Numbered from the stretch's first letter, positions 12,894-34,564 are shown. The stretch: 64,000 nt of DNA from GCA_000165345.1 CM000431.1:64001-128000; one strand, 5' to 3'. The notes: generated by a model not told the origin, from the letters alone. A program made the numbers and translations.

Positions 12894-15800
12894 ATGTTTG
12901 CTAATCAGGATGATTTTTGGACTTCAGATGAGGAGGAGGAAGAAGAGGAGGGGGTAGAAGAGGAGGGGGTAGAAGAGGAGGAGGTAGAAGGAGAAGAAGA
13001 TAAGGATGAAGAAAAGAATGATCAAAAAAATGATTTGGATATGGTTGAAGAAAAAGTTTCCAGAATCAGTCTAAAAGAGGGTAAGGAAGGAGAGGAGAAT
13101 GGTGAGGAAGAGGAAAGAAAGAAAAAGAAGGGATTTATCAGGAAGAAATGGAGTATAGAAGATGAGCGAGATGTTTCTGATTTCAGGGAAATTATAGGCT
13201 ATGAGCCTTGTAAGAAAGAAGATTTGGATGATTCAGAAGATTTGGAGAATGTGGTATTAAAATATCCCTATGAATTGGATGATTTTCAGAAAAGAGCAGT
13301 AATTAATATACATAATGGAGACCATGTTTTAGTTGCAGCTCACACTTCAGCAGGAAAAACAGCAGTAGCAGAATATGCAATAGAGTTAGCTAATAAGAAT
13401 GGAAGGAAAGCAATATATACATCTCCTATTAAAGCTTTAAGTAGTCAAAAATATCGAGAATTTTTGAATAGATTTAGAGAATATCCTGCACATTCATCAT
13501 TTACTCAAAGAAACAGGATTGGAATAATTACAGGAGATGTGAGTATTAATCCTGATGCACAATGTGTAATAATGACAACTGAGATTTTGAGGACAATGCT
13601 ATATAGAAATGATCCTTGTATTGAACAAATTCAGACGGTAATATTTGATGAGGTTCATTATATTAATGATTTGGAGAGAGGCGTTGTTTGGGAAGAGGTA
13701 TTGATATTATTGGATCCAAAAGTTCAACTGGTTTTGTTATCGGCAACAATTCCAAATTATATAGAGTTTGCTAATTGGATTGGAAGGATTAAACAAAATA
13801 CTGTTTATTGCATTCGAACTTTACATAGGCCTGTTCCTTTGAAGCATTATCTTTACATTTACGAGAAATGTTTCCAAATAATGGATGAGAATAATAAGTT
13901 CAATATAAATGGATACAAGGAAATGCTGGATTTTATTAAAACTTCAAAATCTAAGAAGAGTATTAGTAGCTTAAAAAGCAAGGTCAGTAAGCTCAGTTCG
14001 TCAATATCTAAGGCGAACTCATCTCAAGAAATTCAGTCTCAGGAAGACCCAAATCAAGAGGATCCCAGTCAAGAAGACCCAAATCAAGAGGATCCCAGTC
14101 AAGAAGATCCAACCCAGGAAGTTCAGTCCCAAGAAGAACCAATCCAAGAAGACCAATCCCAAGAAACTCAATCCCAAGAAACTCAATCCCAAGAAATCCA
14201 ATCCCAAGAAGCGAAAGTTGAAGACAACAATATTGCAATGCTTAGGATCTCAGCAATTAACAAGCAAATCTCATCTTCTGCTGGAGCAAAAGGAGGATCT
14301 GGGGGAATTCTTTCTAGTGCAGAAACCAAATTCAAGACTGAAGTTTATAGATTACAAGTGTTCTTAAAGCTCTTGGAGAAAAATGATCAATTACCTGTCA
14401 TACTATTTGGATTTTCTAGGAGAAAAGTGGAACAATTAGCAACCAATTTACCAAATCTCAACTTTTTATACAATCATAATGAAAAAAGTAATATTATTAC
14501 ATTTATTAAAGAATCCACAAGTAAATTAAATGAATTGGATCAAAAAATTCCTCAATTATTACAATGTAAAGAATTAGCTTTAAGAGGAATAGGAATTCAT
14601 CATAGTGGAATGCTTCCAATTATCAAAGAAATGACTGAGATCTTATTTACTAGAGGATTAATCAAAGTATTATTTGCAACTGAGACAATATCTATGGGAA
14701 TTAATTGTCCAGCTAGATCTATTGTATTTACTAGTATTAAAAAATATGATGGACGAAAAAATAGAATACTTCTTTCTTCTGAATATACACAAATGTCAGG
14801 AAGAGCTGGAAGAAGAGGTATTGATACTTTTGGTAATGTATTTATATTTAATTCATCACATGAAACAATACCAGAATGTATTGATATTGTAAAGATGATG
14901 CTTAATACTTATTTACCAGTACAAAGTAAATTCAGATTAACATATCAGATGATACTTCAACTTTCTTGTAGACATTCACTTAAAATTGAAGATATGATGA
15001 CTAAATCATTTAAAGAAATGTTCAGATCAATTAATCTTCCAATATTTCATCGAAATTTGAATAGAAAGCTTAAAAGACATCAAATCATACTTTCAAAATT
15101 ACATTCTATATTAGAATCATATAATAGTAATTTGGTTATTTCTAATTATAATCAAAGAAATACAAATCAAAAAGATGAATTTCAATTTGAATCTGATTCT
15201 GAATCTTTATTAAATATTATTAATGGTTTAATTTCAACTATTGAAACTTCAAATTTAATTTCTGGTCAATTATTTCAAAAACTATGTAATTCATCAATTA
15301 ATAAGAATATAATTTCTCAGAAGATTCTTAATCCTGGAAGATTAATACTATTCAATTCTTTTTCATTGACTGGTAAATCTTTACCAATGTTTGCAAATAT
15401 TTTGGAATATAATCCAACATCAACACTTTCTTCTATTATTGTTTATTCACAAGAATTTATTGATTTTCAATTTTCATCAAATAATTATCTTTCAAAAAAT
15501 ATTATGGATGGTAATGATAATAATAATAATAATAATAATAATAAAGGAATTGGTGATTCTAATAATGATATTCAATTTTATGATGTTGTTGAAGAAAGTA
15601 TTCAAAATTATCAAAATTCTAATAAGAATCGACAAATCAGTGTAGTACAAAACTTGATAGATCTTGATAGATCTAAAAAGAATAATAATCAAAGAAATTC
15701 TTCTTCATCGTATTCTTCAAAAAACTCTACAACAATCAATTTGATTCATCATTCAACATTTAATTCTCAGAAATTATTAATTTCAACATCTTTATATAAT

Positions 15801-17213
15801 AATACAAATATTAATGAAATCAATCCATTATTTAAAAACATTAATAATTATTATATTTTTCAAAATGTTCCATTAGAACTTTTTATGTTCATTTTTGATT
15901 TTAATGCTTCAGCTACAAATAATCAAACAAATCTTCTTAAAAGTATTAATTTTAAAGATATTTCCATATTACATAACATTGCAATTTTACTTAAAAACTC
16001 TGTTCAAGACTTTTTATCAAATCAGAATAGTATAAATAATATGAATGGTAATTGTAATAATTCTTTAAAAAATAATAATTTAGGAAATTCTGGTATAAAT
16101 CCTAATATTGGTCCAAAACCAAAGAATAAGAACAATAAAAAAGGTATGAAGGTAAATCTTTTTGAATTCATTAGTCATCAAGAACAACAAAACCAACAAT
16201 TAAATACTAATCGTGGAAATATTACTGAATATTCTTCATCTTCATCTTCAAACATACCAGAAAACTGGCCAAAATTATTACCCATTTCCAAAACACTAAA
16301 ATCAATAGAAATTGAATATTATGAACTTTTACAAAGATATAATGATCTTTTCCCAGAATTTGTTAATAATCATATATTCAAAAATTGTTATTCATTTATT
16401 ATTGAAGAAAATAATAATCATAATGATAATAATGGTAATAATACTATGATTCAACTTATTGTTGAACTTAATAAATTGGATCATGAAATATCAATTTATA
16501 AACATTTCATAAATGATGAAAGTTTGGATGATTATCCAGAAATGAAACTTAAAATACAATTATTAATTGAAAAAGGATTCCTTAATGAAAATCTTACTAT
16601 TACAACTAAAGGTAGAATAGCATCAGAATTACTTACAAGTGATGAACTTACTTTAATAGAAATATTACTGAATGGTATGTTACATAAATTAAATAATATT
16701 CATGAAATTACGGCTATATTATCTTGCTTTGTATTTCCTGAAAAAATGGAATCATTATCAAATTCAAATACTAGTACAAATAATAATAATAATAATAATA
16801 ATATTCTTGGTATAGATAGACCTTCATTACCTTCTGTTGAACTTTTGAATGCTCATGATGAGCTTATTAATATTCATACAGATTATGAAAAAACTCATTA
16901 TAAACATCAAATAAATTTAGATACTGAACATTTTTGGTCTTTATGTAATGATAAATTTATGTTAATTGCTTATAAATGGTCAAATAAAGAATCACTTAAA
17001 GAGATTATGGAATTTGTACATAATTCTGAAATGAATTTACATGAAGGTACAATTGTTAGAACAATTTTAAGACTTGATGAACTTGTTAGAAAACTTATAA
17101 TAGCAGCAAAAATGATGGGAGATAAAATACTTGAAGAAAAATTATGTTTAATACATGAAAATATTGCCAGAGATATCATTTTTATGACTTCTCTTTACTT
17201 TAATTCCAACTAG
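12894..17213 (+). CDS. Ski2/Mtr4-family DExH-box RNA helicase (SKI2-like by size, 1439 aa).
   Basis: Motif I AHTSAGKT, motif II DEVH (FDEVHYIND), motif III SAT (LSATIPN), HHSGMLP, motif VI QMSGRAGRRG. C-terminal DSHCT-like region (...EGTIVRTILRLDELVRKL...ARDIIFMTSLYF). Acidic E-rich N-terminus. Internal Q/E/S repeats and poly-Asn tracts. Confidence 0.85.
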   Translation: MFANQDDFWTSDEEEEEEEGVEEEGVEEEEVEGEEDKDEEKNDQKNDLDMVEEKVSRISLKEGKEGEENGEEEERKKKKGFIRKKWSIEDERDVSDFREIIGYEPCKKEDLDDSEDLENVVLKYPYELDDFQKRAVINIHNGDHVLVAAHTSAGKTAVAEYAIELANKNGRKAIYTSPIKALSSQKYREFLNRFREYPAHSSFTQRNRIGIITGDVSINPDAQCVIMTTEILRTMLYRNDPCIEQIQTVIFDEVHYINDLERGVVWEEVLILLDPKVQLVLLSATIPNYIEFANWIGRIKQNTVYCIRTLHRPVPLKHYLYIYEKCFQIMDENNKFNINGYKEMLDFIKTSKSKKSISSLKSKVSKLSSSISKANSSQEIQSQEDPNQEDPSQEDPNQEDPSQEDPTQEVQSQEEPIQEDQSQETQSQETQSQEIQSQEAKVEDNNIAMLRISAINKQISSSAGAKGGSGGILSSAETKFKTEVYRLQVFLKLLEKNDQLPVILFGFSRRKVEQLATNLPNLNFLYNHNEKSNIITFIKESTSKLNELDQKIPQLLQCKELALRGIGIHHSGMLPIIKEMTEILFTRGLIKVLFATETISMGINCPARSIVFTSIKKYDGRKNRILLSSEYTQMSGRAGRRGIDTFGNVFIFNSSHETIPECIDIVKMMLNTYLPVQSKFRLTYQMILQLSCRHSLKIEDMMTKSFKEMFRSINLPIFHRNLNRKLKRHQIILSKLHSILESYNSNLVISNYNQRNTNQKDEFQFESDSESLLNIINGLISTIETSNLISGQLFQKLCNSSINKNIISQKILNPGRLILFNSFSLTGKSLPMFANILEYNPTSTLSSIIVYSQEFIDFQFSSNNYLSKNIMDGNDNNNNNNNNKGIGDSNNDIQFYDVVEESIQNYQNSNKNRQISVVQNLIDLDRSKKNNNQRNSSSSYSSKNSTTINLIHHSTFNSQKLLISTSLYNNTNINEINPLFKNINNYYIFQNVPLELFMFIFDFNASATNNQTNLLKSINFKDISILHNIAILLKNSVQDFLSNQNSINNMNGNCNNSLKNNNLGNSGINPNIGPKPKNKNNKKGMKVNLFEFISHQEQQNQQLNTNRGNITEYSSSSSSNIPENWPKLLPISKTLKSIEIEYYELLQRYNDLFPEFVNNHIFKNCYSFIIEENNNHNDNNGNNTMIQLIVELNKLDHEISIYKHFINDESLDDYPEMKLKIQLLIEKGFLNENLTITTKGRIASELLTSDELTLIEILLNGMLHKLNNIHEITAILSCFVFPEKMESLSNSNTSTNNNNNNNNILGIDRPSLPSVELLNAHDELINIHTDYEKTHYKHQINLDTEHFWSLCNDKFMLIAYKWSNKESLKEIMEFVHNSEMNLHEGTIVRTILRLDELVRKLIIAAKMMGDKILEEKLCLIHENIARDIIFMTSLYFNSN
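14021..14212 (+). repeat. In-frame coding minisatellite inside the helicase gene. 15/30-nt units (caagaagacccaaatcaagaggatcccagt duplicated, then caagaaactcaatcc x3) encode (QEDPNQEDPS)2 and (QETQS)n.
   Basis: Direct tandem repetition is visible in the sequence. It also produces the artefactual antisense ORFs 14008..14238 and 14019..14207 in the track. Confidence 0.8.
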
Positions 17214-17427
17214 AAAGTAAATAAGAAAAATAAAAAAATTCATGAAAAAAACAATACAAAATCACGATTTGATATAGGAAAAAAAATTTATTTTAGTTAG
17301 AAAAGGTTTAAGTTAAGTTAAGTTTTTGTAAGGTTTTATGTTTGATAGTTTTTAGTTTTGGGTTTTGGGGTTAAATTTGTCTTGGGATTTTGGGTTTTTT
17401 GGTTTAAAATAAAGAATTAAGGTTTTG

Positions 17428-18146
17428 CCTTTAAGAGTTGGCTTGAGGCTTGAGGCTTTCTGGCCTTTAAGAGTTGACTTAGGGTTTCAGGCTTTCTGAC
17501 CTTTAAGAGTTGGCTTAGGGTTTCAGGCTTTCTAGCCTCCAAGGGTGGTTGGCTTGAGGTTTCAGAATTTTTGGCCTTTAAGAGTTGACTTGGGGTTTCA
17601 GGCTTTCTGACCTTTAAGAGTTGGCTTAGGGTTTCAGGCTTTCAGGCTTTTTGGCCTTTAAGAGTTGGCTTAGGGTTTCAGGCTTTCAGGCTTTCTGGCC
17701 TTTAAGAGTTGGCTTGGGATTTCAGGCTTTCTGACCTTTAAGAGTTGACTTAGGGTTTCAGGCTTTCTGACCTTTAAGAGTTGGCTTAGGGTTTCAGGCT
17801 TTCTAGCCTCCAAGGGTGGTTGGCTTGAGGTTTCAGAATTTTTGGCCTTTAAGGGTTGGCTTAGGGTTTCAGGCTTTTTTGCCTTTAAGAGTTGAATTGG
17901 GGTTTCAGGTTTTTGGCCTTTAAGAGTTGGCTCAGGGTTTCAGGCTTTCTGGCTTTCTGGCTTTCAGGCTTTTTGGCCTTTAAGAGTTGACTTGGGGTTT
18001 CAGGCTTTCTGACCTTTAAAAGTTGACTTAGAGTTTCAGGCTTTCTGACCTTTAAGAGTTGGCTTAGGGTTTCAGGCTTTCTGGCTTTCAGGCTTTCTGG
18101 CCTTTAAGAGTTGGCTTGGGATTTCAGGCTTTCTGGCTTTCTAGCT
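17428..18146. repeat. Intergenic minisatellite of about 20 imperfect units of 36-39 bp (consensus cctttaagagttggcttagggtttcaggctttctgg). Each unit carries a TTAGGGTTT telomere-like core.
   Basis: Tandem periodicity is read directly. The array is bounded by an identical 19-mer ttaaaataaagaattaagg at 17404-17422 and 18147-18165. It is preceded by a G/T-rich tttagttttgggttttgggg tract at 17350-17372. Confidence 0.85.
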
Positions 18147-18352
18147 TAAAATAAAGAATTAAGGTAAGGTTTTGACCTCCAAACGTCTTAGGGATTTAAG
18201 CTTCGGGTTTCACCTCGAGCCTCAACCCTTTAAGGTTTTTTTTTTTTTTTTTTGAAATTTAAAGTTAAATAAATACTTAATTATAATAACCTAATAGCCT
18301 TTCAATCATAATTAATATAACCAATTTTATTACTAATTTTAACAAAATAATA

Positions 18353-18393
<41 letters not shown>

Positions 18394-18450
18394 TTTTAAT
18401 ATGATCACCAATAATATCAAGAAATTTATAATAAAAAAATTGACCAACTA

Positions 18451-22267
<3,817 letters not shown>

Positions 22268-34490: not shown

Positions 34491-34563
34491 TGACCTGGTA
34501 GCTCCAACGGTAGAGCGTCTGACTCCAGATCAGACGGTTCAGGGTTCGAATCCCTGTCGGGTC
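34491..34563 (+). tRNA. tRNA-Trp (anticodon CCA at 34524-34526).
   Basis: Hand-folded cloverleaf. Acceptor GACCTGG/TCGGGTC (two G-U pairs). D stem gctc/gagc. Anticodon stem tctga/tcaga with loop cTCCAga. T arm caggg-TTCGAAT-ccctg with B box GGTTCGAATCC. Discriminator A. CCA is not encoded. Confidence 0.85.
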
Positions 34564-34564
34564 A

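Follow-up and report, generated by a model that had tools for sequence, protein, structure and literature searches.

The 64-kb stretch of DNA analysed here (the window) derives from chromosome 3 of Cryptosporidium parvum Iowa II and contains a minisatellite located ~80 kb from the left end of the 1.10-Mb chromosome, in a neighbourhood of housekeeping genes that encode a calcium-dependent kinase, a Ski2 helicase and an NTF2-domain protein. The array occupies the gap between two convergent genes, with a + strand ORF that ends at 17213 and a - strand ORF that ends at 18451; these ORFs bear out the convergent arrangement proposed in a preliminary description of the window that had been made from the sequence alone.

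The upstream flanking gene (12894-17213, + strand) encodes a 1,439-aa Ski2-type SFII RNA helicase with the Pfam domains DEAD, Helicase_C and DSHCT (protein EAK87306.1 in C. parvum Iowa II). The protein is identical in three chromosome-scale C. parvum assemblies, at ~74.8-79.1 kb of a 1.10-Mb record (e.g. GCA_015245375.1 CP044420.1), and it is most closely related to Ski2 from other Cryptosporidium species. Repeats are also found within the Ski2 coding sequence. A 15-bp repeat encoding EEGVE/EEVEG close to the N-terminus (12926-12990) varies by steps of 5 aa, and relative to C. parvum it is longer by 10 residues in the C. hominis assembly GCA_045269125.1 (L004) and by 15 in another C. hominis assembly (L008). 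Short poly-Asn runs (~15517 and ~16779) are unequal between two C. parvum isolates, and an imperfect 15/30-bp coding repeat with QEDPNQEDPS-type motifs lies at 14039-14211 (TRF scores 103-134).

The downstream gene, of which the 3' part is at 18451-20326 (- strand), encodes a large protein of low complexity that is rich in Asn and, where the assembly is complete, about 2,950-2,990 aa long (gene calls of 2981 aa in the C. parvum assembly L002, 2946 aa in C. hominis L004 and 2987 aa in the C. parvum assembly GCA_048859185.1, hereafter L007). In the window, a 500-N assembly gap (20327-20826) interrupts this gene, so that it reads as a pair of ORFs, 18451-20850 and 20318-22267. For chromosome 3 of the C. 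parvum IOWA reference, just one 500-bp gap is tabulated in the literature (PMC4407392), where its size in C. hominis is given as 5.6 kb. The same gene includes a very long, imperfect (TTA)n tract (18971-19405; ~145 copies by TRF) that codes for poly-Asn, and that differs by 3 bp and 24 bp in length between the window and L007. A tRNA gene at 34492-34564 (+ strand, 60.7 bits) was the sole Rfam family to reach its gathering score in the 64-kb window.

Organisation of the array

Using TRF and parsing into units, we identified a minisatellite array of 718 bp (17428-18145) that comprises 18 units, counted on unit start, with the consensus CCTTTAAGAGTTGGCTTAGGGTTTCAGGCTTTCTGG. TRF reported a period of 36 with 14.1 copies (score 562) and a period of 111 (score 714). 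The preliminary description had recorded about 20 units of 36-39 bp in roughly 720 bp; the array and its extent stand, but there are 18 units and their lengths run from 35 to 60 bp. The modal length is 36 bp (n = 10), and the other units are of 39 bp (n = 2), 44 bp (n = 2), 35, 60, 52 and 45 bp. Long C. parvum units contain extra copies of an 8-bp sub-repeat, AGGCTTTC, that has expanded inside them. On the + strand the array is 68% G+T, and its GC content is 45%. A search with the 29-nt unit core, allowing up to 3 mismatches, gave 14 matches, all within the array, against 0 expected. We detected no further copies of the core elsewhere in the 64-kb window or in the loci that we fetched from other assemblies, and a scan of JGI metagenomes with the degenerate unit gave no match. 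The array thus has the head-to-tail units, of a length between ~10 and 100 bp and well above chance expectation, by which minisatellites are recognised. A motif that the preliminary description had attributed to every unit, TTAGGGTTT, is found in 8 of 18 units only; the remainder carry TTGGGGTTT, TTGAGGTTT, TTGGGATTT, TCAGGGTTT or TTAGAGTTT instead.

Self-comparison of the array at offsets of 271, 278 and 402 bp gave runs of 36-bp segments that are 92-100% identical (repeat families D1 and D2), which indicates that multi-unit blocks were duplicated recently.

Repeat-related sequence extends beyond the array on both sides. Upstream, at 17351-17403, is a G/T-rich lead-in with T4G3 and T4G4 motifs, followed by a degenerate part-unit, recognised from the sequence, from a third repeat family (D3) and from the contexts of the 19-mer described below. 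The lead-in includes TTTAGTTTTGGGTTTTGGGG (17351-17370), which the preliminary description had correctly noted ahead of the array. The part-unit shares homology with the final unit of the array and with the tail of the long C. hominis units; in family D3, 17377-17401 is 80% identical to 18111-18135. Downstream, sequence comparison revealed a terminal degenerate unit, GACCTCCAAACGTCTTAGGGATTTAAGCTTCGGGTTTCACCTCGAGCCTCAACCCTTTAAGG (18165-18235), and then a poly-T tract of variable length (18236-18253), the two together spanning 18165-18253. Both are present at every C. parvum and C. hominis locus, including that of L007, which lacks the array. Neither the poly-T tract nor a (TA)16 microsatellite at 18359-18391 has a fixed length across the assemblies of C. 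parvum and C. hominis.

Comparison of assemblies also revealed a 27-bp indel polymorphism upstream of the lead-in (17303-17329; AAGGTTTAAGTTAAGTTAAGTTTTTGT), with AAGGTTT direct repeats at both edges. The window, L002 and L007 have the 27 bp, which L001 (IOWA-ATCC) and L003 (IOWA T2T) lack; C. hominis carries a 22-bp version. Hence, assemblies that are nominally of IOWA type are not alike at this position. The Iowa II reference has been described as a hybrid of two subtypes (PMC8848321).

Distribution of the array among Cryptosporidium species

We fetched orthologous loci via the Ski2 orthologues, and compared nine C. parvum and C. hominis loci together with loci from four further species. The gene order kinase, ~1,100-aa protein, Ski2 and convergent large low-complexity protein is common to C. 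parvum, C. hominis, C. meleagridis and chipmunk genotype I. At the shorter loci from C. felis and C. muris, a convergent gene again comes directly after Ski2, and the upstream kinase is also found in C. muris. Each of the six species therefore has a convergent gene next to Ski2, and the upstream order is common wherever the fetched DNA reaches.

The spacer between Ski2 and its neighbour differs greatly in length. It is ~1.23 kb in IOWA-type C. parvum, with an array of 18 units, and about 0.8 kb in each of four C. hominis assemblies, with 4 units. We read the spacers of C. meleagridis (236 bp) and chipmunk genotype I (110 bp) directly and found no array or 19-mer, and those of C. felis (42 bp) and C. 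muris (135 bp) were judged, by length, to be too short for an array. Among the six species compared, the array thus appears to be an innovation of the C. parvum/C. hominis lineage.

The C. hominis array is built differently from that of C. parvum. Its four units, of 98, 61, 37 and 97 bp in the four assemblies, all open with a C. parvum-type core, CCTTTAAGGGTTGG(C/T)TTAGGGTTTCAGGGCTTTTGG. In the 61-bp unit, this core is extended by an A-rich tail; in the units of 98 and 97 bp, it is extended by that tail and the 19-mer (TTAAAATAAAGAATTAAAG and TTAAAATAAAGAATTAAGG). Since the unit core is common to both species, the array of C. parvum is older than the split from C. hominis. The units nonetheless carry species-diagnostic bases: 14 of the 18 C. 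parvum units have AAGAG...CAGGCTTTCTGG, versus AAGGG...CAGGGCTTTTGG in C. hominis units. This sharing of diagnostic bases within a species is concerted evolution. Block duplications and species-specific bases are what slippage and unequal exchange would be expected to leave.

The C. hominis assemblies exhibit a single unit-level variant (CCTTT or CCTCC), with the fourth unit starting CCTTTAAGGG in L004 and CCTCCAAGGG in L008, L009 and L010. The contig of L010 stops in the poly-T tract just past the array, suggesting that this region breaks short-read assemblies. [quoted passage not shown] The level of divergence at 18165-18450 argues that the spacer following the array is not constrained.

The framing 19-mer and an array-less C. 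parvum allele

The array is framed by two exact copies of the 19-mer TTAAAATAAAGAATTAAGG, at 17404-17422 (copy 1) and 18146-18164 (copy 2). The preliminary description had reported both copies and placed the first correctly; the second begins one base earlier than it had stated. The 19-mer has exactly two occurrences, and shuffled sequences averaged 0.43 matches with 3 mismatches allowed.

We then compared alleles within C. parvum. The array is identical in every unit between the window and three chromosome-scale assemblies (L001-L003), four IOWA-type assemblies in all, which differ around it only in the 27-bp indel, the length of the poly-T tract and the length of the (TA)n tract. Hence, the array is not hypervariable on laboratory time scales. 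We also considered whether the array in the window might be an assembly artefact, and ruled this out because the three further assemblies have the identical array; the other indels in the region show that these assemblies do not simply reproduce a single sequence.

In a fifth C. parvum assembly, GCA_048859185.1 (L007), the spacer measures 493 bp and contains 0 units and one 19-mer. L007 lacks exactly the 742 bp from one 19-mer to the next, such that its single 19-mer joins the upstream flank of copy 1 to the downstream flank of copy 2. It is a distinct isolate, set apart from the window by SNPs at 14915, 17282 and 18276 and by several in-frame AAT/ATT indels, but with a divergence of only ~0.01-0.1%. 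Copy number therefore differs at the locus: four C. parvum assemblies have 18 units, L007 has 0 and the four C. hominis assemblies have 4 compound units each. This had been anticipated by the preliminary description, which had predicted length polymorphism; the comparison within C. parvum covers two lineages, and the array-less allele is known from one assembly.

An exact 19-mer on either side of the array, and a clean empty site with one 19-mer in a closely related isolate, are features that a mobile element could produce. The preliminary description had proposed that the 19-mers are a duplicated target or the terminal repeats of a non-autonomous element, and had suggested a search for an empty site with a single 19-mer. 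Such a site exists, and L007 could accordingly be read as the state before insertion, with the 19-mers as a target-site duplication or as terminal direct repeats. The structure of the C. hominis array points elsewhere. There, the 19-mer forms the end of the 98- and 97-bp units, with its two copies only 196 bp apart, an arrangement that the preliminary description had itself named as counting against its proposal. The similarity between the two frames in C. parvum also reaches past the 19-mer on both sides: to the left of each copy, side-by-side alignment of the contexts revealed homologous sequence, TTG.CTTGGGATTT..GG.TTT.TGG (family D3), and to the right of each copy a unit starts anew. We detected no terminal inverted repeats, the inverted repeats within 17200-18460 being confined to the (TA)n tract, and no second copy of the putative element in the window or the fetched loci; its interior is a homogeneous tandem array without coding capacity. 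Finally, the presence of the unit in C. hominis makes the array older than the C. parvum isolates, and the empty allele derived. We consider an insertion of this kind extremely improbable. Because the C. hominis copies lie inside 97-98-bp units, the 19-mer belongs to the repeat, as the end of a compound unit, and not to a target-site duplication. The two C. parvum 19-mers are likely to be remnants of the longer unit of this repeat, and likely substrates for deletion.

For the L007 allele, the simplest reading is a deletion between the two repeats that bear the 19-mer rather than a pre-insertion site, and since the unit is also found in C. hominis, deletion is the parsimonious direction. One base does not fit. 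The base before the 19-mer is T at IOWA copy 1, and C at copy 2, in L007 and at both C. hominis copies. A simple crossover within the 19-mer of an IOWA-like allele is thus not a full explanation of the L007 junction, which would call either for a C-to-T substitution in IOWA at a later date or for a junction that is shifted left by one base.

Relationship to telomeric sequence

Interstitial telomeric sequences are internal, strand-asymmetric, G/T-rich tandem tracts, and the array resembles them in being internal, tandem, G/T-rich on the + strand and supplied with TTAGGG cores, in 8 units, as well as with T4G3 and T4G4 motifs just upstream. The preliminary description had accordingly suggested a relic of chromosome fusion or of telomere healing. 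A related idea is that telomerase made a patch at a double-strand break, which later degenerated and was amplified. Consistent with either, the unit has a loose TnAGn sub-periodicity of 7-8 nt, and exceeds mononucleotide shuffles in local alignment against TnAGn arrays, with z = 5.2 for (TTTAGG)n and z = 9.4 for (TTTAGGG)n, although such shuffles are a weak control for TT/GG-rich sequence.

The telomere repeat of Cryptosporidium is reported in the literature to be TTTAGG/CCTAAA. We counted 0 TTTAGG hexamers across the array, and the 64-kb window is free of TTTAGG or CCTAAA in tandem; the telomere-type array with the best score, TTTAGGG, is a repeat that Cryptosporidium does not use. The unit is a compound one of 36 bp. 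In the gene-order comparison we detected no fusion, healing or synteny breakpoint at the site: Ski2 has a convergent gene as its neighbour in all six species, with the upstream order in common where the fetched DNA reaches it, which argues against a breakpoint of either type. The site is also well inside the chromosome, with housekeeping genes around it. We therefore regard a telomeric origin, whether by fusion, healing or repair, as very unlikely. "Telomere-like" describes a resemblance of composition and motif, and is not evidence of descent; the array is not supported as a telomeric relic, and a very old telomere-type seed may lie behind it. Literature searches gave no description of an interstitial telomere tract or of a VNTR at this locus. 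A G-quadruplex array was rejected in turn, since no motif of the form (G3+N1-7)x4 was found in the array.

Coding, structural and regulatory potential

Several possible roles for the array were examined. A coding repeat was ruled out: the longest ORF is 47 aa, and the frame is broken by the 35-, 44- and 52-bp units. A composite query of the translations of three open frames had no match among 5.8 billion predicted proteins, and none of the nine loci from C. parvum and C. hominis has a gene call in the array. A known RNA family was likewise ruled out, with a best Rfam E-value of 0.82 (20.8 bits, against a gathering score of 55), as was DNA prone to form hairpins or cruciforms, given a single-strand DNA fold z of +1.17 relative to shuffles and inverted repeats only in the (TA)n tract. 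A centromere or other essential chromosomal element was rejected because the array is absent from one C. parvum isolate and from four other species.

We also considered whether the array might be a functional cis-element or non-coding RNA, acting as a spacer or terminator for convergent transcription, as a set of telobox-type (AAACCCTAA) sites for Myb-like factors, or as a recombination hot spot. Its position, exactly between two convergent 3' ends, and its stability in the four IOWA-type assemblies would suit such a role, and TTAGGGTTT is the reverse complement of the plant telobox core. Against this, the array is dispensable in L007, and convergent genes only 42-236 bp apart do without it in four species. 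TTAGGGTTT has been retained in fewer than half of the units, the array has neither an Rfam match nor a fold, and the flanking spacer evolves faster than coding DNA. A function of this type seems unlikely.

Discussion

We have described an ordinary lineage-specific intergenic minisatellite with higher-order structure. In our assessment it is quite probable that this is a non-coding minisatellite that was born locally, in the 3' spacer that separates two convergent genes, in an ancestor common to C. parvum and C. hominis, and that it has no detectable function of its own. G/T-rich spacer sequence would have been duplicated to give a compound unit in which a 36-bp core was joined to an A-rich tail and to the 19-mer. 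The core would then have multiplied to 18 copies in C. parvum, with a surviving tail and its 19-mer on either side; replication slippage and unequal exchange presumably drove this amplification, and multi-unit blocks were duplicated recently. Lastly, one C. parvum lineage would have lost exactly the 742 bp between the 19-mers, with one copy left behind. The order of these events, slippage and exchange as their mechanism, and the neutrality of the array are the parts of this account that we infer. Of the preliminary description, the observations were partly confirmed and the interpretation partly supported.

The array shares many properties with known repeat systems. Minisatellite (VNTR) loci serve in Cryptosporidium multilocus typing; like them, the array has head-to-tail units of tens of bp, with a copy number and an organisation that differ by isolate and species, and would have evolved by slippage and unequal exchange, with no function needed as an explanation. 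It differs from them in its long unit (36 bp, with compound forms of 61-98 bp in C. hominis), in its large size (0.7 kb), in being intergenic and not in a coding low-complexity tract like typing loci, and in C. parvum variation that is all-or-none (18 versus 0 units) and not stepwise. Primate alpha satellite is a higher-order-repeat satellite with concerted evolution, and the duplicated multi-unit blocks, 92-100% identical, and the species-diagnostic bases of the array are reminiscent of it. In contrast to alpha satellite, the array spans hundreds of bp and not megabases, is found at one locus within the window and the fetched loci, and has no centromeric role, as indicated by the isolate that does not have it. 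Deletion between short direct repeats proceeds by slipped-strand or single-strand-annealing mechanisms, and the array-less allele is of the expected form, being short of one repeat-to-repeat distance with one 19-mer kept. It departs from a plain deletion of this type in the base to the left of the L007 19-mer, which fits copy 2 and C. hominis and not IOWA copy 1. Perez-Cordon et al. surveyed the Iowa II genome with Tandem Repeats Finder, as described in PMC6917613.

The array itself is of little biological weight. With primers in the 3' ends of the flanking genes, both of which are conserved, the locus could provide a PCR size marker, a cheap one for species or lineage if population sampling confirms the alleles: anchor-to-anchor distances are ~1.25 kb in IOWA-type C. 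parvum, ~0.5 kb in array-less C. parvum, ~0.8 kb in C. hominis and <0.3 kb in C. meleagridis. The coding repeat and poly-Asn runs of Ski2 could be finer typing markers than the intergenic array. A more general caution is that an organism's own telomere sequence should be checked before repeats that contain TTAGGG are named telomere-like. It is most improbable that the array is the amplified, degenerate descendant of a telomerase-templated double-strand-break repair patch in the C. parvum/C. hominis ancestor, perhaps now a local hot spot for unequal exchange or deletion between convergent genes; were it so, an apicomplexan would supply one of the few documented instances in which a repair-type interstitial telomeric insertion became a minisatellite. 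As a locally born minisatellite, the locus is a clear example of deletion between direct repeats, and it illustrates that a 0.7-kb minisatellite can be acquired, rebuilt and lost in the compact, repeat-poor genome of Cryptosporidium over the short time span of C. parvum and C. hominis.
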